Positions 340-48,325 of a stretch of DNA of 60,146 bases are shown piece after piece. The stretch's first letter is position 1; every line of letters begins with the position of its first letter. The stretch is taken from positions 1-60,146 of the forward strand of contig CANRKS010000001.1 of assembly GCA_947631285.1 (NCBI GenBank), in the 5' to 3' direction. The translations under genes and the position numbers were made by a program. The notes under the pieces are model-generated. The model had not been told where the DNA came from, made no database searches, and saw only the letters and a program-made list of their open reading frames with translations. The stretch comes from an uncultured Bacilli bacterium. Its GTDB lineage: Bacteria > Bacillota_I > Bacilli_A > RF39 > UBA660.

Positions 340-603
340 TTGAAAGAAGCGACTGGTGAATTAAATATGACTGTTGTTACAGTTGTTGCAATTGCAGCAA
401 TTCTAGCATTTTTTTATCTTATAATTTGGCCAACAATTAGAACTAGTTTAAGTTTAACTACTGCATGTAGTAGTGCCGGCAATTCGACAATGACTTTTAA
501 AGACGATAATAATAAAGATTCAATAATATGTGCTAATGGTACCTGTACTGATCAAGAAACTCAAACTTCTAAAGTTTGTCAAGAAGAAAACAAAAATGGT
601 TAG
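340..603 (+). CDS. small prepilin-like / bitopic exported protein, Cys-bearing (paralog A1)
   Basis: TTG start behind AAGGAGGAG. 87 aa: 6-aa leader MKEATG, then hydrophobic helix LNMTVVTVVAIAAILAFFYLIIW, then a polar C-terminus with 4 Cys. Aligns with 607..864 (MKE.TG.LN.TVV...AFFY..WP..RT). Confidence 0.6.
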   Translation: MKEATGELNMTVVTVVAIAAILAFFYLIIWPTIRTSLSLTTACSSAGNSTMTFKDDNNKDSIICANGTCTDQETQTSKVCQEENKNG

Positions 604-606
604 ATC

Positions 607-864
607 ATGAAAGAGTCAACAGGTAGTTTAAATTCGACTGTAGTAATTCTTTTGGCTGTTGGGGTTCTAATAGCCTTTTTTTACTATACAGTTTGGCCAT
701 TAGTAAGAACTAATTTTGAGCAAAATTCTCAATGTAGTAAGGCTATTTGCGATGAATGTCCAGCTGATTCTAATGGCCAAAAAAATTGCGATTTTGTAAC
801 ATGTTATCCTAAAGGTAAAGAACATACTGAAGAAAATGCTTTACAATGTGTTTGGAAGGGTTAA
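607..864 (+). CDS. small prepilin-like / bitopic exported protein, Cys-rich (paralog A2)
   Basis: 85 aa: leader MKESTG plus helix LNSTVVILLAVGVLIAFFYYTVW. There are 6 Cys in the last ~45 aa (QCSKAICDECP...NCDFVTCYP...LQCVW). Tandem paralog of 340..603. Confidence 0.6.
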   Translation: MKESTGSLNSTVVILLAVGVLIAFFYYTVWPLVRTNFEQNSQCSKAICDECPADSNGQKNCDFVTCYPKGKEHTEENALQCVWKG

Positions 865-876
865 GGAAGTGAAATA

Positions 877-1383
877 GTGCGAGAAGCAGTTGGAGGAATT
901 CCGATATTTCAAATTGTTGTGGTTTTTATTTTGCTCTTCACTGGAATCATGTGTTTAACTATTAATAGATCAAAAGCATATGGGGTAAAGGATGAAATAA
1001 TTACTATAATAGAAACAGAAGGAATGAGTTCTGCTTCTTTTGAGTTAGATCAAAATGTTAATACTTTAATCGCAGAACAATTAAAAAACGTGGGATATAG
1101 AATTACCGGTAAGTGTCCTGATGGATATACTGGATATAACCGAGATGGTGTAGAGCAAAATAGAGGGGATTCGGCTTATTGTATTAGATACAACCGAGTT
1201 GAACATGTTTTTTATGAAGATGCTCAAAATAAGTGTAGTAATTCAAAATGTACACCGACGGAAGATGATTTTCCAGCAATGGCATATTATGATGTAGTTT
1301 TATTTTATCAACTTGATATTCCCCTTATTAAAGATTTATTTAATTTTAAGGTGACTGGTTCAACCCGAGTATTATTTAAGTAG
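877..1383 (+). CDS. prepilin/TadE-like bitopic exported protein (paralog B1)
   Basis: GTG start behind AAGGAAGTG. 168 aa: leader MREAVG plus helix IPIFQIVVVFILLFTGIMCL. The ectodomain carries GKCPDGYTGY...AYCIRYN...KCSNSKC. The C-terminal DLFNFKVTGSTR is shared with 1391..1825. Confidence 0.55.
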   Translation: MREAVGGIPIFQIVVVFILLFTGIMCLTINRSKAYGVKDEIITIIETEGMSSASFELDQNVNTLIAEQLKNVGYRITGKCPDGYTGYNRDGVEQNRGDSAYCIRYNRVEHVFYEDAQNKCSNSKCTPTEDDFPAMAYYDVVLFYQLDIPLIKDLFNFKVTGSTRVLFK

Positions 1384-1390
1384 GTGAGCT

Positions 1391-1825
1391 ATGAGAGAAG
1401 CGATTGGAACAGAAACAATTTTTAAAGCTGTGTTAGTATTTACTTTAATTTTTGCAGCTTTTGTAGCGGTAGCCATTACCTATAATAAAGCTTATAAAAT
1501 GAAAAATGAAACGATGTTTATTTTAGAAAAGTATGAAGGTATTAATGATAATTCATTAAGAATTATTAATAATTATTTAAGAAATAATGGTTATAAAACA
1601 AAAGGTATATGTGATGCTGGCGATTATGGTATAAATAGTTTAGAAGAAACTTCTTATGTAACTGCAAGTGGTAGTGATTCTTTTTATTACTGTTTGAAGC
1701 CTAATGAAAAATCAGGAAAGACGTTTATAACTATTAAAGTGTTTTTCCGATTTAGCCTACCTTTCTTTGGTGACCTATTTACTTTTAAAGTAACGGGTGA
1801 AACTAAAGGTATTAGAAATTTTTAG
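1391..1825 (+). CDS. prepilin/TadE-like bitopic exported protein (paralog B2)
   Basis: RBS AGGTGA. 144 aa: leader MREAIG plus helix TIFKAVLVFTLIFAAFVAVAI. A conserved Cys pair sits in GICDAGDYG...FYYCLKPN. C-terminal DLFTFKVTGETK. Confidence 0.55.
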   Translation: MREAIGTETIFKAVLVFTLIFAAFVAVAITYNKAYKMKNETMFILEKYEGINDNSLRIINNYLRNNGYKTKGICDAGDYGINSLEETSYVTASGSDSFYYCLKPNEKSGKTFITIKVFFRFSLPFFGDLFTFKVTGETKGIRNF

Positions 1826-2907: not shown

Positions 2908-3279
2908 ATGTTATTAGCCGATTTTTGTTCAGAAACCGCAGGCATTTGGGCTGTGCTTGGCTATGTTGTTTTAGTTATTAAAATTGTAATTCCTTTAATG
3001 TTAATTATTATGGGAATGATTGATTTAGGAAAGGCTGTTATTTCAAGTGATGAAAAAGCAATTAATAAAGCAGTTAGTACTTTAATTAAAAGATTTATTG
3101 CTGCCGTAATTGTCTTCTTTATCCCAACAATTGTTAGTGCTCTATTTAGTGTTGTTACAAGCATTAATATGAATCAAGATTATGCTACTTGTGTTCAATG
3201 CTTAGTAAATGTTACAGCAGCATCTGGAAATGCCGATTATCATTATTGTAAATCTGACGTTTCAATTGTAGAAAAATAA
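2908..3279 (+). CDS. TrbC/VirB2-like two-helix membrane protein
   Basis: 123 aa. Two hydrophobic helices (IWAVLGYVVLVIKIVIPLMLIIMGMI and FIAAVIVFFIPTIVSALFSVV) flank a short polar loop (DLGKAVISSDEKAINKAVSTLIKR). The polar tail has 3 Cys (TCVQC...YHYC). Confidence 0.4.
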   Translation: MLLADFCSETAGIWAVLGYVVLVIKIVIPLMLIIMGMIDLGKAVISSDEKAINKAVSTLIKRFIAAVIVFFIPTIVSALFSVVTSINMNQDYATCVQCLVNVTAASGNADYHYCKSDVSIVEK

Positions 3280-8919: not shown

Positions 8920-9633
8920 ATGGAAAGACTGCAAAAAGTTATTGCTAATAATGGCTATTCTTCAAGAAGAAAAGCGGAAGAATTAATTAGCAAGGGAAGA
9001 GTTAAAGTTAATGGAGAAGTAGTAAATACTTTAGGTTTTAAAGTTAGTGAAGATGATATTATTGAAGTAGAAGGTAATATTTTAAAAACTTTAACTACTT
9101 ATGAGTATTATATTTTAAATAAGCCAAGAGAAGTAATTTGTAGTGTTAGTGATGATAAAAAGAGAAAATGCGTAGTTGACTACATAAAAACTGAAGCAAG
9201 AATTTATCCAATAGGAAGATTAGACTATGATACAACCGGCCTTATTATTTTAACTAATGATGGGTTGTTAGCTAATATTTTAATGCATCCACATTATAAA
9301 ATAAAAAAAACATATATTGCTAAAATAAATGGAATTTTAACGGAAGATGATTTTAAAAAATTAAGAAAAAATGTTATGATTGATAATAGAAAAGTTATTA
9401 TTGATAATTTTAAAGTTAAAAAGATTGATAAAATTAAAAATACTTCTTTAGTAGAAGTAACAATTCATGAAGGAAGAAATCATATTGTACGAAGGTTATT
9501 TGAAACCTTACATTATGATGTTTTGAAATTAACTAGAAGTAAGTATGCTTTTTTAGATCTTGGCCATTTAAAAAGTGGCGAGTATCGCCCTTTATCAAAA
9601 GAAGAAGTAAAAGCTTTATATAATTTAAAATAA
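8920..9633 (+). CDS. rluB: pseudouridine synthase, RsuA/RluB family
   Basis: S4 domain (RLQKVIANNGYSSRRKAEELISKGRVKVNG) and catalytic motif GRLDYDTTGLIILTNDG. Confidence 0.85.
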   Translation: MERLQKVIANNGYSSRRKAEELISKGRVKVNGEVVNTLGFKVSEDDIIEVEGNILKTLTTYEYYILNKPREVICSVSDDKKRKCVVDYIKTEARIYPIGRLDYDTTGLIILTNDGLLANILMHPHYKIKKTYIAKINGILTEDDFKKLRKNVMIDNRKVIIDNFKVKKIDKIKNTSLVEVTIHEGRNHIVRRLFETLHYDVLKLTRSKYAFLDLGHLKSGEYRPLSKEEVKALYNLK

Positions 9634-40445: not shown

Positions 40446-43400
40446 ATGATGACAAAACTATTTAAAATATTAAATGTAGTAATCATAACAATGTTTTTAA
40501 ATATATTTGTAGTTAGGGCTGATGGCTGTAGTAACGTAAGAATTGTTACGGATGGAGTAGGTAGTCCAACTAGTTTTTCTTATGGTTATCAATCTGGCAG
40601 TGTTCGTTATAAAATTTATGATTATCGTGTTAGAGTTAATGGAGGTGCTAGTATCAGTGCCTATTGTCATAATCCTGGTATTCATGCTTGGGAAAAAACT
40701 AACGAAGTACTAAATTGTGAAAGAGAATTATTTGATCCAACGAATAATAGTGTTAAGCAAAATATTTATGATTCAGGGATCATATATCTTTTAAAATCTG
40801 CTCCTAATAAATGGTTAGCCATAAATTTATATCAATTATTATTTTCCGATAGAGTTGATGTTAGATATGCGGAAACTGATATGTATTCTTCTCAACTATA
40901 TTATTTAGAAAATCAAATCAATAAATATTTAGATGAAAAAAATGAAAATAATAAAGCCAAAAGATTAAGAGAAAAAGTAAGTGCCTTAAAGAAAACATAT
41001 GGCTCTAGTATAGGGAAAAAATATAGTGGCGTCAGTAGATATAATGATTCTAATGGTGTAGATAGCGCTATGGATTATGTTTTAAATGCCCTTGATGTTG
41101 CCATTGATTACGCAAATAATGGAGGACCAACTGTCAAAATAGGTAATCCAACCAGAAAGAAAGCTAATACGGAAACAGAGTTAAGATCAACTTTTACTTA
41201 TAAAATAGATATTAAAGAGTTTGCTGAAAATAGTGAAATTTATTTATCTTATAATTGTACAAGAGGCTGTAATATTGCTGATGTTAAATTTTATTTAAAT
41301 AATGAAGTAAAAAGTGCTTCTGAATTAAGTAATACAAATTTAGTCAAATTAGTTCAAAATAATAGTTCAAGTAAAAAATATTCAGGAACGGTTGAATTTG
41401 TTATTGAGTATAGTGGTCCAGTTAGAGAAGATTGTGATGAAACTAGATATAAAATAAGTTTAAAATATCGAGATGAAGCTTTAGCTGCCGAAGCATATGA
41501 GGTTGATGAGTGTTCTAATGTTGAAAAGTGCCAACGACTTTATGTTTTAGCAGGGAATAATACCCAAAATTATCGAACAACGGATATAGAAAATCAATTT
41601 CAATTATGTTCTACTTCTAAAGAAGTTGGAGAATGTAAGACTTATGTTGGTGATGCTTCTTGTGTCCCTTGTGAAGAAAATGATAATAAAGTAGAAATAA
41701 AAGAAGGTTATGATACGGAAGATGTATGTACTGAACCAACTGAAGATGATTTAAACATTAAAAAATGTGTTGCTAGTAATAGTGCCAGAGATACATCGGG
41801 AAATACTCATAAAAGTAATGATTATACAAGTGAAGCAGGCAGTGGCAATTTTGCTGGTACTGATGGAGGTAATGGTATTTATTGTAAAGAAGATTATACT
41901 TTAACCTTACCAGGTTCAAGAAAAGTAGATGCCGGAAGATATTTTGTCCTTCGTTCACAAATTGAAGGAACTAAGTCTTGTTATTCAACTAGAATAAAAG
42001 ATAATACTGCGACTAATTCGTCTGTCAAAGCGGCAGCTCAAAGTACAGTGAATGTCTATAAAAACTATGCCAAAGCCAAAGCTTTACTAGAGTGCTTAAA
42101 TGGAGGCGGAAGTGGTAGATGCCATGTGTCTTCGTTTTATACCAGCGGCGGTGTCTGCCGAACAAGACCCGTAACAAGGAAACGTTATGCTCAAAAAGAA
42201 GAAGATGAACCGTGTCCTGAAGGTTATACAGAAACTACGTTTGCTGGCAAGCCTACTTGTGAACAAGAGTATACAGACATTGATAGAATTTATTATTTAG
42301 TACCTGGTATTGATGTTTATTGGGATTATACATATTATAATGGTAACTCTTGCACACCAGTAACAGAAAATGCTTTTAAAACTTGGACAACTAGTAATCG
42401 TGGTAGATGGCTATGTTTAAATGATGATGAGCTAGCTGATTCTAAATTTATGGAAGAACTTTATAATAGTGTAGATGAATTAACTCCGTCCTTAGAGCGA
42501 GAATTAGGAGAAGAAGCTAATTTTACTTGTAACTGTACTGGCGATCCTTCTAAAGGTCCCGTTGATTGCCCTTGTTCTGGCCGGGGAGCCACTGGATTTA
42601 CCGCAGGTCTTGGTACAGGAGGAATGTGGTCAATTTTAAAAAATTATAATAAAGTCATTGGTTTTTATACTGGCGGCTCTGATATTGGTGGAGGTACGGT
42701 AACTGAAGGAGGCGGAGGTTACTCTGGAACTGGTGAAGGATCTTACGGAGTTACTTTAAATCCTAATCCATTTGGAGGCTGGCAAGTTGGTTATAACTTT
42801 AATCCAGAAATGCATTTTTGGTATCAAGAAAGATATATGAAAAATGTTTTAACTGATACTTTAGACCGTTATGATGAATCTATTGAAAGATTGGCGCCTT
42901 TATATTGTACGGGTGATGTTTCTGATGACTATGAAGAATGTTCTGGTCTTGGAGGATGGAAAAAATCTTTAAGCTTAGGGGCAATCGGAGATACAAGTGC
43001 CGATATTTATCAAGACCGAGCTTGTGCTTGTACAACAGAAGGATGTAAATGGTATACCTATGCTATTGCTAATGTTAAATATATTAAACAAACTGCTAAA
43101 GCTGAAGCTAAATTTGTAACACCTACCCAATTTTATAACATTTATCCAACCGGAGCAGTTCCTGTCGGATTACCAGGCTTAGAAATTGATAATGCGACAG
43201 TAATGGAAAATGGCTTACCAGTTGAGTTAGGTAGTGAAAGTGGGGGAAAAGTTTACTTATTATGGTATGAAAATTTAGGTGAATACTATAATGGTGATAC
43301 TTTAGGAAGAATTTGGGGTAATTATAATAGTGTGGTAGCTACAACCTTACAAGCGAGTGAAGCATGTCGAACTGAGAGATCTTCAATTATTTTTGAAGAT

Positions 43401-44384
43401 GAAACAAATGATGTTTACCATGATGAAGGACTTTATAAATGCCGTTATGATGTTAACGAATGTAGTCAATGTAAAGAAGAAGTGGACAATTATTGTGACC
43501 CAGCTTGTCCAAATGATCCTGATTGTCCAAGTTCTGGCAGTTGTTCTAGTGTAAGTGATGGTATGTGCAAAGCTGGTTGTCCTGCCGATCCGGATTGTTA
43601 TTGTGCATCTTGCCCTCCGGATATCAAAAACAGATGTGCTGTTTTAAAAGATGAAAATGGAGGAAGTCATTATTATGATAGAACCGGTAAAGAAACTAGT
43701 ATGGGAACATATTATTCTCAATGTTGTCCAAATGGTAGATGCCAAGTAAATTGTAAGAGTTGCTTGTTTGATGGTACTGATCTAAAAGCTAGTTATAGAC
43801 AAATAACAAATGAGGACTTAAACCCTAATGATCGTTCTTTAGGTACTAACTGGGCTTGGGATAATAATATCAATACGGCCATTGAATTAAAAGCTTATGT
43901 AACAACTAAAGAAATTGAAGAAAATAGTAATTCAATTTATGAAGTTGATTTTGAAAATACTTCAGATGAACAAGATTTTGCCATGCAAGTTACGATGGAT
44001 CCAAAAGCTGTAAATTGGATTAGAGATTATAATCAAACGGCTTCGGGAGGATATCTAAATAATACTTTAGAGTGCTATGATCTAGAAGTTGGGGAAAATA
44101 TTTACGATAATGTTTATTGCTATAGTACTTTCATTGATGAAATGATTAATGATAATGTTGGTAATATTAAAATTGCAGGAGCTGAAAGACCAATGGATGA
44201 AAATGGCCGAAAAGCTTATAGTAATGGTTATTTTATAAGTTGGCAAACTGATAATATTAATACCCAAGAATGGGAAGTAAGAACCGAAAGAGGAATTGAA
44301 TACTATACATCTAATTTTGGTATGGTATACGATAAGACAGCAAATAAAGATGTAGATTATCGGGTTGGACCTTCTTGGAAATAA
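40446..44384 (+). CDS. giant secreted cysteine-rich protein, unknown function
   Basis: 1312 aa with signal peptide MMTKLFKILNVVIITMFLNIFVVRADG. I hand-counted ~53 Cys. It has a Gly-rich segment and a 109-aa stretch with 18 Cys that includes CPNDPDC and CPADPDC. There is no LPXTG motif and no C-terminal TM segment. Confidence 0.6.
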   Translation: MMTKLFKILNVVIITMFLNIFVVRADGCSNVRIVTDGVGSPTSFSYGYQSGSVRYKIYDYRVRVNGGASISAYCHNPGIHAWEKTNEVLNCERELFDPTNNSVKQNIYDSGIIYLLKSAPNKWLAINLYQLLFSDRVDVRYAETDMYSSQLYYLENQINKYLDEKNENNKAKRLREKVSALKKTYGSSIGKKYSGVSRYNDSNGVDSAMDYVLNALDVAIDYANNGGPTVKIGNPTRKKANTETELRSTFTYKIDIKEFAENSEIYLSYNCTRGCNIADVKFYLNNEVKSASELSNTNLVKLVQNNSSSKKYSGTVEFVIEYSGPVREDCDETRYKISLKYRDEALAAEAYEVDECSNVEKCQRLYVLAGNNTQNYRTTDIENQFQLCSTSKEVGECKTYVGDASCVPCEENDNKVEIKEGYDTEDVCTEPTEDDLNIKKCVASNSARDTSGNTHKSNDYTSEAGSGNFAGTDGGNGIYCKEDYTLTLPGSRKVDAGRYFVLRSQIEGTKSCYSTRIKDNTATNSSVKAAAQSTVNVYKNYAKAKALLECLNGGGSGRCHVSSFYTSGGVCRTRPVTRKRYAQKEEDEPCPEGYTETTFAGKPTCEQEYTDIDRIYYLVPGIDVYWDYTYYNGNSCTPVTENAFKTWTTSNRGRWLCLNDDELADSKFMEELYNSVDELTPSLERELGEEANFTCNCTGDPSKGPVDCPCSGRGATGFTAGLGTGGMWSILKNYNKVIGFYTGGSDIGGGTVTEGGGGYSGTGEGSYGVTLNPNPFGGWQVGYNFNPEMHFWYQERYMKNVLTDTLDRYDESIERLAPLYCTGDVSDDYEECSGLGGWKKSLSLGAIGDTSADIYQDRACACTTEGCKWYTYAIANVKYIKQTAKAEAKFVTPTQFYNIYPTGAVPVGLPGLEIDNATVMENGLPVELGSESGGKVYLLWYENLGEYYNGDTLGRIWGNYNSVVATTLQASEACRTERSSIIFEDETNDVYHDEGLYKCRYDVNECSQCKEEVDNYCDPACPNDPDCPSSGSCSSVSDGMCKAGCPADPDCYCASCPPDIKNRCAVLKDENGGSHYYDRTGKETSMGTYYSQCCPNGRCQVNCKSCLFDGTDLKASYRQITNEDLNPNDRSLGTNWAWDNNINTAIELKAYVTTKEIEENSNSIYEVDFENTSDEQDFAMQVTMDPKAVNWIRDYNQTASGGYLNNTLECYDLEVGENIYDNVYCYSTFIDEMINDNVGNIKIAGAERPMDENGRKAYSNGYFISWQTDNINTQEWEVRTERGIEYYTSNFGMVYDKTANKDVDYRVGPSWK

Positions 44385-44823: not shown

Positions 44824-44856
44824 ATAAGGAAAGTTAATCTTTTCTTATTTTTTTTA
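44824..44856 (+). terminator. intrinsic terminator of 44466..44822, embedded in the 3' end of the convergent gerKB-like gene
   Basis: 10-bp stem ATAAGGAAAG/CTTTTCTTAT (one G:U), 5-nt loop, T8 run. Confidence 0.65.
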
Positions 44857-45850
44857 AGTAAAAGAAAAGGGTAATAAAAAGAAGAAAGAAAATAAATAAG
44901 ACAAGAGGATAAGAATAGAAGACGGTAATGATAAAGCGATAGTTGCTGCCTACGATGAAAATACTTAAGATGATGGTTATAAAGATTGCTAAGTAATAAT
45001 AGATAGATTTGTATTTATGAGGGAGGATTTCTTTAACATTAAAAGTTAAAGTTGAAAGTGTTATAAACATATCAAAATACCATATAAAAGTTGAAAGATT
45101 TTCAATGTTTTCGATAAAATCAAGAATTTTAATTTGTTTTAAAACAGCATATTCAGGGAAACTATAAATTCTAATTAAAGGTTCACCTAAACATAAAATG
45201 GTTGATAAAGTAATTAAGAAGAGCATTAAACTAGAGATAAGATAAACTTTAAGTTCATATTTAAAATTATAATTATTAAAATTTAGAGTAATAATATTAG
45301 GTATTGTAGTAATGGATGCATAAATTAAAGAAGCTTTAATAATACCTTTTGAATTATTAGATAATATTGGTGTAATGGCTTTAAAGTCGATATATTTAAT
45401 CAGGGCAAAGATATAAATAATGATGGTAAAAATACTGATGACAAAAAGAAGATTACTTAAAGTTTCTAAAACTCTTTTTTCTTTATAAGTAAGATATATA
45501 GCTAAGAATAAGAAAGGTAAAATAACAATTATTTTTGGAGTGTATAGAAGATAAAAAGAGTTAACAAACATAGGAAGTAAAATTAAAATAATGGTTATTA
45601 AATAAAGATAAAAGAGAAAGAAAATAAATAAATAAAATTTGCCTAAATAACTATTTTTTAAAGTTTCTTTTAGATTGTTATCTTTTAGACATTCTTTAAT
45701 TTTACTATAAATAAAGAGAATAATAATTCCTAGCATGGTGCCAAGGATAAGAGATATCCAAGCATCTTTAGAGGCATTTTTAAAAAGTAAAAAGAAACCA
45801 ATTCCAAACATTGAAGAACTAGAAATAAAATAAGTTAATTTATTTTTCAT
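44834..45850 (-). CDS. gerKB: spore germination receptor subunit B (GerAB/GerKB family permease)
   Basis: ~10 TM segments with an APC-like profile. Last gene of an A-C-B operon. I prefer the ATG at 45850 (behind GAGGTGG) over the TTG at 45862. Confidence 0.75.
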   Translation of the reverse strand: MKNKLTYFISSSSMFGIGFFLLFKNASKDAWISLILGTMLGIIILFIYSKIKECLKDNNLKETLKNSYLGKFYLFIFFLFYLYLITIILILLPMFVNSFYLLYTPKIIVILPFLFLAIYLTYKEKRVLETLSNLLFVISIFTIIIYIFALIKYIDFKAITPILSNNSKGIIKASLIYASITTIPNIITLNFNNYNFKYELKVYLISSLMLFLITLSTILCLGEPLIRIYSFPEYAVLKQIKILDFIENIENLSTFIWYFDMFITLSTLTFNVKEILPHKYKSIYYYLAIFITIILSIFIVGSNYRFIITVFYSYPLVLFIFFLLFITLFFYLKKIRKD

Positions 45851-46919
45851 TTTCCACCTCAAAGATAAAGCCTTTTGTATTAATTTTTAAATCAACATTA
45901 ACAGAAACGTCACTTGTTTGCCATAAATTATGATTTTCTTTGCGAAACTTTTTATAATACATTTCTTGAAAGCCTAAAATATCAGTTTGGTTTTGTTGTA
46001 ATTTTTTGATAAAATCCTTTACTTTTTCTTTTATTAAAAGGGCAAAATCTTCATTTAATTTTTGATATGATTTTTCATCTTTTAAATTAAAATCAGCACT
46101 GTTATCTAAAATTTTACCATCGAGTTTTAAATCTAGAGTAATTTTATCATTGGTAATAGCTGTCTTAGTTTGGGAATGACTAATATTAATAGTTATGTTT
46201 CCCGTGGGATAATTTTTAGTAAATTTTAAAGCAAAAACATCATTAGTTAATAAATTAAATAAGGGAGATTCTTCTTTAGTTAAAGTATTTTGAAAATAAA
46301 AGCCTTTAAAAAGATAAAATTCGTCTAAAGATATCTCATCATTTTCATTTATAGTAAGAGAACTTAAAACAACATCCGTTCGCGGACTAACAAATTGCGC
46401 TAAAACTTTTTGAAATGTTTTAGTTGTTGCTAAATTATTATTATAGACTTCATTATTTAAAAGATTAATAATGAAATCACTTACAACAGGGATGTTTTCA
46501 CTATTATGTTTTAAAATATCTTCGGGACTAACTTTTTTCGCCACCACACTGATGAATTCATCTCGAATATCAGTATCTCTTAAGAGAAAATCACTAATTT
46601 CATCAAGGTGATCTTTAATGACGCTTTCACTTAAGATTACTACTTTTAGATGAGCAAAATAAGGCTTTTTCCCAACCTTATAATTAGTGGCCGTAAAAGC
46701 ATCAACTATTTTTTCACCCATTCCTTTCACGGTAAAACTTTTCATCGCTGTATTTTCTTCCGTTTTAATATCGTTTAAAATTTCATAAGTTAAAATGAAA
46801 TCATTATCTTGATAATCAATACCAATGCCACTTATAATAGCTAAATTATTAAGTTCAATATTGTCATAACAGCCTCCTAGAAGGAGGGAACTAATGATTA
46901 AAATAATTATTTTTTTCAT
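45840..46919 (-). CDS. gerKC: spore germination receptor subunit C (Ger(x)C lipoprotein)
   Basis: Lipobox LLGGC followed by YDNIELNNLAIISGIGIDY, the typical Ger(x)C N-terminus. 359 aa. Confidence 0.8.
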   Translation of the reverse strand: MKKIIILIISSLLLGGCYDNIELNNLAIISGIGIDYQDNDFILTYEILNDIKTEENTAMKSFTVKGMGEKIVDAFTATNYKVGKKPYFAHLKVVILSESVIKDHLDEISDFLLRDTDIRDEFISVVAKKVSPEDILKHNSENIPVVSDFIINLLNNEVYNNNLATTKTFQKVLAQFVSPRTDVVLSSLTINENDEISLDEFYLFKGFYFQNTLTKEESPLFNLLTNDVFALKFTKNYPTGNITINISHSQTKTAITNDKITLDLKLDGKILDNSADFNLKDEKSYQKLNEDFALLIKEKVKDFIKKLQQNQTDILGFQEMYYKKFRKENHNLWQTSDVSVNVDLKINTKGFIFEVENEK

Positions 46920-48325
46920 GAAAATTTTCCTCTCGTTAAATTTTTATTAGTAATAAGTCGACTTCTTTTGGTATTTTTTATATCTTTTCTTTTTAAAACT
47001 GATTGATAAAAATATTCTTTATTATAAGGAGCAATCGGGGCAAAAAAAGGAGCATTTAAAGATTTTAAAGAAATTAAATTGATTAATAAGAGCATGGCAC
47101 AGAGGAAGATACCGTATAAGCCAAAAAAGGCAGCGAAGAATAAAAATAAATAGCGGTAATATCTTAAAGCATTATTAATCTCTAATTCTGTAAATATTAA
47201 ACTAGTAATAAAAGTAAAGGATGCGACAATGATAGCGATGGGAGAAACAAGTCCGGCATTAACCGCGGCATCACCAATTATTAAAGCTCCTAAAATGGAA
47301 ATAGCGGAGCCAAAATTAGAAGGGAATCTTAAATCACTTTCTCTTAAGACATCACAAATAAAAAGTAACATGATTATTTCGACAATACTAGGAAAAGGAA
47401 CACCAGATCTCTGGGTACTAAAATTAATTAGTAAACTAGCCGGGATAGTTTCTTGATTATAATTAATGATTGCAATATATACGCCTGGAGTAATCATAGA
47501 CATAATAAAGGAAAATAGCCTTAAAAGTTTTATAAAAGCAACATTGATACTTTTAACATAATTATCGTTAACAGGATTAATAAAATCAATTAAAAAAGTA
47601 GGAAGAATAAGAGCAAAAGGCGAAGTATCCATCATGATAACAATTTTTCCTTCTAAAAGAGCATTAACAGCTAGATCTGGTCTTTCAGTTCTTTTAATCG
47701 TAGGGAAAACGGTTTTGTTTTCACTTTCTAAATAATTAATAATCGTCCCTTGATCAATCACACCATCGACATCAATTTTTTTTAATTTTTCCTTAATAAT
47801 ATTAACATTTTGTAAATCAGCAATACTATCAATATAATTAATGCTAATAGTAGTTTTTGTAATTCTGCCCATGACCATTTCAATAGTTTTTAAAGTATGG
47901 CTTTTGATTCTTCTTTTAATAAGTCCCATATTAATTTGATAATTTTCATTAAAAGAATCTTCGGGTCCTAAAAGAGATGGTTCTCTTAAAGATTGAGTAA
48001 TACTTCGATTTAAATCCCCTCGGGCTTCAATAGCTATAATTTTATTTTCAAAAATGACAATGGCAAAACCATTCGTCAAATAAAATTCAATTTGATCTTC
48101 TTCGGTAATATTAATGGCATTAGGACCGGGAATAGAGTTTTCAATATCTCGAGTTTTTTTAAAAGTTAAGTTTTTTAAAATATATTCATTGATTTTATCA
48201 GATGAACAAACCGTTTCAATAAAAATGACATAAACTGATTTTAAGAAGTTAATTTTAACTTCTTTTATTTTTAAATCAGGTGTTTTAGAAAATTCTTTTT
48301 TTATTCTTTCTACAATTTTATTCAT
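46916..48325 (-). CDS. gerKA: spore germination receptor subunit A (GerA/GerKA family)
   Basis: 469 aa. A soluble N-domain is followed by 5 TM segments (e.g. FGSAISILGALIIGDAAV). Overlaps gerKC by 4 nt. Confidence 0.8.
   Translation of the reverse strand: MNKIVERIKKEFSKTPDLKIKEVKINFLKSVYVIFIETVCSSDKINEYILKNLTFKKTRDIENSIPGPNAINITEEDQIEFYLTNGFAIVIFENKIIAIEARGDLNRSITQSLREPSLLGPEDSFNENYQINMGLIKRRIKSHTLKTIEMVMGRITKTTISINYIDSIADLQNVNIIKEKLKKIDVDGVIDQGTIINYLESENKTVFPTIKRTERPDLAVNALLEGKIVIMMDTSPFALILPTFLIDFINPVNDNYVKSINVAFIKLLRLFSFIMSMITPGVYIAIINYNQETIPASLLINFSTQRSGVPFPSIVEIIMLLFICDVLRESDLRFPSNFGSAISILGALIIGDAAVNAGLVSPIAIIVASFTFITSLIFTELEINNALRYYRYLFLFFAAFFGLYGIFLCAMLLLINLISLKSLNAPFFAPIAPYNKEYFYQSVLKRKDIKNTKRSRLITNKNLTRGKFS

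Follow-up and report, generated by a model that had tools for sequence, protein, structure and literature searches.

A candidate Tad-like filament module with cysteine-rich pilin-like proteins in a pLS20-type type IV secretion cluster of uncultured gut Bacilli

The conjugation operon of the Bacillus plasmid pLS20 and its family (genes 34-52) has an adhesin gene (Tie), followed by gene 36, the ATPase gene 37, the membrane-protein genes 38 and 39, gene 40, the tandem gene 41, gene 45, two large genes and the genes for VirD4, VirB6, VirB3 and VirB4. In the pLS20 family, genes 36 and 38-45 are listed as unknown, and the systems are said to encode no pilus components (Val-Calvo et al. 2021, PMC8557374). 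Chromosomal arrays that combine MPF-FATA-like VirB4/VirB3 with VirB2-like proteins of family PF18895 have been described for Patescibacteria (bioRxiv 10.1101/2025.01.22.634366). In the literature, DUF5411 was met once in passing, DUF4320 was not mentioned, and nothing was found on a pLS20 pilus. Here we describe four consecutive genes, P1 to P4, from an uncultured Bacilli bacterium, whose relatives carry them within a cluster resembling the pLS20 operon. The analysed stretch, hereafter the window, is the whole 60,146-bp contig CANRKS010000001.1 (assembly GCA_947631285.1), which starts 339 bp 5' of P1.

With moderate confidence, we read P1-P4 as filament subunits of a Tad-like type IV filament module that lies within a Gram-positive pLS20-type type IV secretion system (T4SS) cluster and is chromosomal in uncultured gut Bacilli. 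P1 and P2 would be the major, and P3 and P4 the minor, pilin-like subunits. The elements concerned are as follows.

283-311, + strand: promoter-like site ahead of P1, TTGATA-17-TATAAT (11/12), within a conserved 5' region
325-331, + strand: AAGGAGG ribosome-binding site of P1, read from the sequence, 8 nucleotides ahead of the TTG start
340-603, + strand: P1, TTG start, 87 residues, MKEATGELN..., candidate major pilin-like subunit
607-864, + strand: P2, ATG start, 85 residues, MKESTGSLN..., paralogue of P1 and candidate second major-type pilin-like subunit
877-1383, + strand: P3, GTG start, 168 residues, MREAVGGIP..., candidate minor pilin-like subunit
1391-1825, + strand: P4, ATG start, 144 residues, MREAIGTET..., paralogue of P3

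The original prediction had proposed four open reading frames beginning MKEATG, MKESTG, MREAVG or MREAIG, each followed by a hydrophobic helix, and all four are indeed found in place, with the leader motif running directly into 20-25 hydrophobic residues. Position +5 is occupied by Thr in P1/P2 and by Phe in P3/P4, in agreement with the claim that none has Glu there. The ectodomain cysteine (Cys) pairs and clusters are likewise present as described, and they are conserved in orthologues. P1 carries four ectodomain Cys (C43/C64/C69/C80), set in a beta-rich head, and P2 six (C43/C48/C51/C61/C66/C81). P3 has four, namely a conserved pair C80/C102 and a second pair C120/C125, in addition to C26 inside the membrane helix, and P4 has two, the conserved pair C74/C101. 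The suggested likeness to the pilin D-region disulfide is not supported, since the conserved Cys pair of P3/P4 is located in the middle of the domain and is thus not a C-terminal D-region.

P1-P4 fall into two pairs of paralogues. Profile comparison with hhalign gave a probability of 99.8% for P1 versus P2 and of 100%, over 136 columns, for P3 versus P4. Between the two pairs, only residues 1-28 are weakly alike, and they are in register. In a search of a 5.8-billion-protein collection, the P1 family comprised 1790 clusters at 90% identity and P3 had 125 close homologues; the P3-family profile reached 1168 clusters at 50% identity. Neither a functional name nor a Pfam domain is attached to members of the P1 or P3 families. 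P1/P2 and P3/P4 are two new, large and unnamed families of pilin-like proteins. Their N-termini align at residue 1 as M-[KR]-[ED]-[AS]-x-[GS], and the 150 P3-profile matches listed all begin at, or close to, the first position of the profile, except for a few truncated sequences devoid of the N-terminus. The P1/P2 proteins range from 77 to 100 residues across the family.

Conservation was counted on orthologues from 80 genome loci (78 for P1, 79 for P2, 78 for P3 and 80 for P4). The suggested check of whether Gly6 is invariant comes out positive for P1 and P2, where Gly6 is found in 78/78 and 78/79 sequences, respectively. Gly6 itself varies in P3 (67/78, with Ser in 10 and Ala in 1) and in P4 (64/80, with Ser in 10, Ala in 2, Thr in 2 and Glu in 2), where it is the small character of the residue that is retained in about 95-100% of the sequences. 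Indeed, position 6 is Gly, Ser or Ala in 78/78 P1, 79/79 P2, 78/78 P3 and 76/80 P4 proteins. Conservation of the Cys columns stands at 86-100% in P1 (its four Cys), 100% in P2 (four of its Cys), 92-100% in P3 (C80/C102) and 99% in P4 (C74/C101). The number of Cys per P1 orthologue is always even (4, 6 or 8), and that of P2 is 4 or 6 with a single exception. C26 aside, P3 orthologues mostly hold one or two Cys pairs, and P4 orthologues mostly two or four Cys.

Residues 1-31 of P1 are nearly invariant (residues 2-9 are identical in 77-78 of the 78 sequences), in comparison with a column identity of 20-50% in the C-terminal half. At the fourfold-degenerate sites of codons 4-6, 11 and 14, three or four codons are in use. 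As these synonymous sites vary while the residues stay fixed, the constraint acts on the peptide rather than on the mRNA. The junction is situated at residue 6 in 119 of 120 close P1 relatives, and the single exception resembles an over-extended gene call. An extra P1 paralogue (locus L080, 9466-9732) carries a 15-residue N-terminal extension (MNEATKNSGMTVATG) ahead of QLNTTVV, and its leader still ends in ...TG/QLN. A longer leader with the same end fits a junction set by a cleavage site and not by the distance from Met1. By its length and its -1 residue, the MKEATG-type peptide has the features of a class III signal peptide, as read from sequence. A separate observation is that N-x-T is invariant at residues 9-11 of both P1 and P2; a connection with glycosylation, which a YfhO-like neighbour described below could bring to mind, is pure speculation.

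The DNA just 5' of P1 is conserved as well. Positions 273-345, about 70 nucleotides that include the promoter-like site and the ribosome-binding site, are 89% identical to the corresponding region (~9419-9491) of loci L002-L005. The P3 proteins of these loci are only ~53-57% identical to the window P3, so that the regulatory or 5' untranslated region itself appears to be conserved.

Confident AlphaFold2 models built from family alignments show P1 and P3 with the pilin 'lollipop' plan, a long N-terminal helix and a small head. The P3 model (mean predicted local distance difference test score 86.6, predicted template modelling score 0.75) has a helix at 7-48, a second one at 59-72 and a mixed sheet, giving an alpha/beta head. 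The P1 model (mean predicted local distance difference test score 79.9) consists of a helix at 10-46 and, after it, four short strands. Pfam and NCBIfam scans of the window P1-P4 and of the adjacent protein Z gave nothing significant, and searches of PDB sequences with profiles of P1, P3, Z and two further cluster proteins introduced below (the 301-residue membrane protein and CpaB) returned no meaningful match. The Flp_Fap model (PF04964) did not match P1, P2 or any of 109 P1-family members even at E<=5, and the G/XXXXEY motif is absent. Similarly, TadE (PF07811) matched neither P3, P4 nor any of 115 P3-family members at E<=5, and no other family recurred among them; N_methyl (PF07963) is absent from P1-P4. 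The sole recurrent sequence signal in the P1 family comes from the archaeal Pilin_N model (PF07790), which matched 48 of 109 members with a best E-value of 2.7e-4, all under its threshold of 25.2 bits; the window P1 scored 15.2 bits (E 0.04). On this sequence evidence, P1-P4 are not members of any described pilin family.

As the window contig begins 339 bp ahead of P1, longer contigs of relatives were used for context. Across the 80 genome loci and additional metagenome contigs the gene order is nearly fixed, as listed here for the relatives.

Gene 1: secreted protein of ~240 residues
Gene 2: secreted, very Cys-rich protein of 900-1400 residues
Gene 3: DUF5411 protein, starting MKE[SA]YWG followed by a hydrophobic helix
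Gene 4: CpaB/RcpC-like protein
Gene 5: CpaF/VirB11-family ATPase
Genes 6 and 7: polytopic membrane proteins of 301 and then 262 residues
Genes 8: P1, P2, P3 and P4
Gene 9: Z, ~320 residues
Gene 10: one to five VirB2-like T4SS_pilin proteins

Genes for PrgI/VirB3-like, TraC-like and VirB4-like proteins and for a cell-wall hydrolase lie downstream in 23-35 loci. The hosts are metagenome-assembled genomes that carry the labels uncultured 'Bacilli', 'Tenericutes' or 'Mycoplasma sp.' and derive from the gut of rabbits, goats, mice, chickens and humans; Clostridium sp. CAG:609 is among them.

The CpaB/RcpC assignment is solid at family level: PF16976 was found in 28/28 members (best 1.6e-7), and TIGR03177 matched at 1.4e-9, under its curated cut-off. 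The ATPase, whose gene is present in 57 related loci, matches T2SSE at 1.4e-30. Its best solved relative is CpaF (1.7e-20), with FlaI and VirB11 close behind, and all its NCBIfam matches are far under cut-off. The 301- and 262-residue membrane proteins are extremely conserved (~80% column identity). Z is present in 82 of 86 sources, always 3' of P4, and has invariant residues G153, N156, T158, H160, G162, T164, T165 and D222. A CbiA/MinD/ParA domain was matched in only 3 of 29 family members (best E 1.1e-3), which hints weakly that Z is possibly a degenerate ParA/MinD-type protein, similar to TadZ/CpaE. VirB2-like homologues occur in 66 sources, often in arrays of 2-5 (L002 12084-15061 and equivalents); some of the array genes are fused to large N-terminal domains, and VirB3-, VirB4- and hydrolase-like genes follow. 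VirD4 homologues (~1e-47 to 1e-49 against pLS20 VirD4) lie near the P1-Z operon in four loci (L057 12179-17235, L079 7015-12201, L053 4179-6404 and L073 15158-17323). In L057 and L079 they are located 3' of Z and come behind two large proteins, an arrangement like that of pLS20.

The relationship to pLS20 extends to individual genes. When the ATPase was compared with 72,556 plasmids by tblastn, the best match was gene 37 of the pLS20 family, annotated 'VirB11-like/CpaF family' (32-33% identity, 1e-37 to 8e-43), and by sequence the ATPase is clearly closer to these gene 37 proteins than to CpaF itself. Genes 36, 40, 41 and 45 were assigned on pLS20 (L086, NC_015148.1, 9446-14265). Gene 36 is DUF5411-like (Pfam 1.4e-5; 92.4% in hhalign with the cluster DUF5411 protein), gene 39 matches the 262-residue protein (94.6%, 6.8e-8), and gene 45 exceeds the Pfam threshold for T4SS_pilin with 32.1 bits. 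Gene 40 has an N-terminal helix and is DUF4320-like at 17.2 bits, under the Pfam cut-off; the homologue from Bacillus atrophaeus carries the annotation 'DUF4320 family protein'. Gene 41 encodes a tandemly repeated 47-residue one-helix protein. Two further equivalences were considered and rejected. The 301-residue protein is collinear with gene 38, yet hhalign gave no significant match, and the alignment of P1-P4 with genes 40-44 was not significant either (0.1-15%, for P3/P4 against DUF4320 and P1 against the 47-residue protein). The tblastn search of the same 72,556 plasmids with P1, P3 and the 301- and 262-residue proteins gave no match, and a scan of viral contigs revealed no counterparts of P1-P4.

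In the window, P1-P4 have the following neighbours and distant associates.

76-222, + strand: 3' remnant of a YfhO-like gene, its last ~47 residues, with stop codons 5' of the remnant; 57% identical (tblastn) to the final 45 residues of the L007 protein
1844-2815, + strand: Z, a conserved cytoplasmic protein of 323 residues, 3' of P4
2845-2873, + strand: second promoter-like site, before the VirB2-like gene, TTGACA-17-TAAAAT (11/12)
2908-3279, + strand: VirB2-like, T4SS pilin-like membrane protein (PF18895) of 123 residues with four Cys in its tail
40446-44384, + strand: giant secreted protein of 1312 residues with 53 Cys (4.0%); phmmer 2.5e-197 to an L016 protein
44834-48325, - strand: GerA-type germination receptor operon (Spore_permease, GerAC and GerA, 7.2e-132), adjoining the gene of the giant protein

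The VirB2-like protein of the window matched PF18895 at 4.3e-5 with 23.9 bits, the cut-off being 26.6 bits. No Pfam domain was found in the giant protein, which is a candidate adhesin of the system. Its gene opens the cluster in relatives and in the window is situated ~37 kb from P1-P4, among unrelated genes. In the closest relatives, L006 (7057-9309) and L007 (7062-9320), an intact YfhO gene of 750 residues stands between the 262-residue gene and P1, and the L006 protein matches PF09586 at 3.6e-77. Since only a 3' remnant of the YfhO gene is left in the window and the giant protein gene is 37 kb away, the locus is rearranged in this genome. The germination operon makes the original description of the host as a spore former reasonable.

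The exported part of the system is Cys-rich throughout: 4.0% in the giant protein, 4.6% in P1, 7.1% in P2 and 3.0% in P3, compared with ~0.8% in typical ORFs of the window. The exported proteins are thus four to nine times richer in Cys than the other encoded proteins. Because the Cys in the P1/P2 heads, which are only 40-55 residues long, are conserved and even in number, they can be argued to form structural disulfides, and P1-P4 are probably disulfide-bonded. A search for a thiol-disulfide oxidoreductase, run within the window, found no thioredoxin-type CxxC protein.

The P1-Z operon is apart from the motor block in at least seven other genomes as well. As for processing, four of these (L009 5251-7319, L010 6184-8256, L049 6156-6617 and L058 7394-7837) have genes of canonical type IV pilins (KKGFTLIELL, PF07963) immediately 5' of P1. 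Since these relatives carry canonical KGFTLIE pilins, a prepilin peptidase is likely to be encoded elsewhere in their genomes. A gene for a CPBP/Rce1-like intramembrane protease (PF02517, 6.2e-18) is divergently oriented 5' of the cluster in 14 loci only (for instance L002 99-794 and L004 681-1376, both - strand). This protease could possibly act as an alternative processing enzyme; other genomes have different neighbours at that spot.

Taken as filament subunits of a Tad-like module, P1-P4 would insert in the membrane with the N-terminus inside via their hydrophobic helix, and a prepilin peptidase encoded elsewhere would cut off the six-residue leader behind the small residue 6. Extraction and polymerisation of the mature subunits would then fall to the ATPase together with the two membrane proteins. 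The shaft would consist of P1, and perhaps P2, as suggested by the small size, the invariant core helix and the variable exposed head, which is the typical pattern of a major pilin. P3, P4 and perhaps the DUF5411 protein may be present at low abundance and prime the filament or form its tip. The very small extracellular heads would be stiffened by disulfides, of which P1/P2 would have two or three and P3/P4 one or two. The filament, possibly displaying the giant Cys-rich protein, could establish the cell contacts used by the neighbouring secretion or DNA-transfer machine.

Several observations weigh against this assignment. The window contains only P1-P4, Z and the VirB2-like gene, plus the distant giant protein, and the motor genes are not on the contig. 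Motif searches of the 60-kb window, and of the DNA up to 10 kb from the operon in the 80 loci, revealed no prepilin peptidase of the A24 family (G-x-G-D type). P1-P4 have no above-threshold match to the N_methyl, Flp_Fap, TadE or Class III signal models. Foldseek searches of the P1 and P3 models against the PDB retrieved no structural relative (best E 0.4 and 2.5), so that the heads are not recognisably those of any solved pilin or any VirB8-, PilO- or GspM-type domain. Glu+5 is absent, a residue that is not universal among minor or archaeal pilins. The leader lacks a net positive charge (K2, E3), unlike classical prepilins, and is conserved over its whole six residues, which is unusual. On the motor side, no similarity to T2SSF (TadB/TadC) was detected in the 301- and 262-residue proteins (a Pfam scan including the 262-residue family and a PDB search of the 301-residue protein), and hhalign between the two families gave no paralogy. 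Their platform role thus draws on size, topology and position only. Cleavage, filament formation and the disulfides are themselves predictions from sequence and models. The pilin-like reading of the original prediction is partly supported: the cluster context, the models, the invariant N-terminus with a variable C-terminus in P1 and the sub-threshold PF07790 signal make it much more plausible, but it is left without a match to a pilin family, by Foldseek or to an A24 peptidase. The length and the small -1 residue of a type IVa or archaeal prepilin leader, which had also been proposed, are borne out, but the system is tied to a pLS20-type T4SS cluster and is not a stand-alone type IVa pilus.

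Some of these points bring forward another explanation, namely that P1-P4 are uncleaved bitopic components of the machine, of PilN/PilO, GspL/M or VirB8 type, with the leader serving as a docking motif for the ATPase or Z. It is the main rival because no peptidase was found in the 60-kb window or the 80 loci and the leader is both not net positive and fully conserved, the identity of residues 2-9 in P1 going beyond the needs of a classical prepilin. In addition, the succession of membrane helix, long helix and alpha/beta domain in P3/P4 corresponds to the layout of alignment subunits, and the pLS20 counterparts 38-44 figure in the published description only as conserved conjugation proteins labelled unknown (PMC8557374). 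However, proteins of 77-100 residues that combine an invariant helix with a hypervariable head, as P1/P2 do, bear the signature of a polymerising surface subunit, and Foldseek revealed no VirB8-, PilO- or GspM-like structure. The restriction of position 6 to Gly, Ser or Ala is that of a peptidase site, and the L080 paralogue has a longer N-terminus ahead of the same TG/QLN junction. We consequently regard uncleaved components as improbable, while taking them seriously.

It is much less probable that P1-P4 are small Cys-rich proteins exported by the Sec pathway, with signalling, bacteriocin-like or surface-exclusion functions, and cut after the helix by signal peptidase I. Directly behind the helix, P1/P2 do carry an invariant Ala42-Cys43 or a comparable context of small residues, the resulting mature parts of ~40-45 residues with 4-6 Cys would have the typical size of disulfide-rich peptides, and Class II bacteriocins were matched weakly by two members of the P1 family. 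Such an export signal is nevertheless difficult to reconcile with a hydrophobic stretch of ~22-25 residues that the models place in one helix reaching residue 46-48, far longer than a Sec h-region. Furthermore, this helix is the most conserved part of the protein, the opposite of a disposable signal peptide, the n-region has no net positive charge, and the genes are tightly linked to the set of CpaB, ATPase and membrane proteins. Finally, gene calling, or a codon preference for AAA GAA behind the start in AT-rich DNA, might have produced the shared motif as an artefact, a concern raised by the frequency of Lys-Glu after Met in low-GC genomes and by the non-ATG starts of two of the four genes. 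It has negligible weight, given that the start residue is the same in orthologues from over 80 genomes and over 1000 sequence clusters (for P1 with ATG in 49, TTG in 27 and GTG in 1), that residues are fixed while synonymous sites vary, and that the strong ribosome-binding site AAGGAGG precedes P1.

If P1-P4 are indeed filament subunits, widespread uncultured gut Bacilli build a surface filament from two pilin families. Since no database model recognises these families, current surveys of pili and secretion systems would miss such subunits. The main interest lies in the testable possibility that a Tad-like pilus module is a general, overlooked part of some Gram-positive conjugation systems, with at least three genes common to the cluster and pLS20. 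Carried further, this reading would make P1-P4 the subunits of a new kind of filament: a Tad-derived, disulfide-bonded pilus integral to a Gram-positive T4SS or conjugation machine, of which pLS20 genes 36-44 would be a reduced version. The machine would now be a chromosomal, vertically inherited organelle for cell contact or DNA exchange, and its leader might use non-A24 processing. We put this forward tentatively, as a rather unlikely proposal; were it true, it would contradict the textbook view that Gram-positive conjugation systems make no pili. The Cys content also raises the question of how extracellular disulfides are made and maintained by an anaerobic Firmicute that lives in the gut and has genes for spore germination.

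P1-P4 can be compared with several known systems. With type IVa pilins such as PilA and ComGC they share a six-residue leader ending in Gly and, as predicted, a lollipop of helix and beta-sheet with a disulfide-type head. They differ in having no N_methyl match, Phe+1 or Glu+5 and in the mid-domain position of the P3/P4 Cys pair, and the lineage has separate KGFTLIE pilins. The archaeal type IV pilins (PF07790, class III, cut by PibD/EppA) similarly combine a short leader ending in a small residue with a hydrophobic helix and no conserved Glu+5. Position +1 of P1 is Glu, or Gln in one paralogue, which recalls the Gln+1 of EppA substrates. In contrast to the archaeal proteins, the P1 family has a bacterial host and PF07790 matches under the cut-off, and no PibD/EppA-type gene was seen in the loci examined. 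The Patescibacteria clusters are also chromosomal, with VirB4/VirB3 and PF18895 arrays in bacteria known only from metagenomes, but they belong to another phylum, and neither an embedded Tad-like module nor P1-P4-type proteins have been described there (bioRxiv 10.1101/2025.01.22.634366).

The likeness to Tad (type IVc) systems concerns the machinery. The relatives' cluster encodes a CpaB/RcpC homologue, an ATPase that may be of the CpaF clade and possibly, in Z, a ParA-like counterpart of TadZ/CpaE, and two polytopic membrane genes precede those of four proteins with an N-terminal helix, two of them small and two mid-sized. The order in monoderm Tad loci, tadA-tadB-tadC-flp-tadE-tadF, matches that of the cluster. 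The subunits, on the other hand, lack the Flp_Fap and TadE matches and the G/XXXXEY motif. Their leader has six residues, where Flp leaders are longer, and P1/P2 have a Cys-rich beta head with predicted disulfides, where Flp pilins have no globular domain. Further differences are that the cluster membrane proteins are not recognisable as T2SSF, that TadV is not found in the locus, and that the cluster is fused to type IV secretion genes. With regard to pLS20, the DUF4320 protein (gene 40) and the 47-residue one-helix proteins (gene 41) stand in the place of P1-P4, and pLS20 has neither the MKEATG motif, the Cys-rich heads nor CpaB. Moreover, pLS20 is a plasmid with a relaxase, whereas the cluster described here lies on the chromosome and keeps its synteny in many species. 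Despite these differences, the relatives' cluster and the pLS20 operon share their overall gene order, with homology for genes 36, 37 and 39 and family-level likeness for gene 45, and pLS20 is genetically tractable in Bacillus subtilis, so that the hypothesis of a pilus module can be directly tested there.

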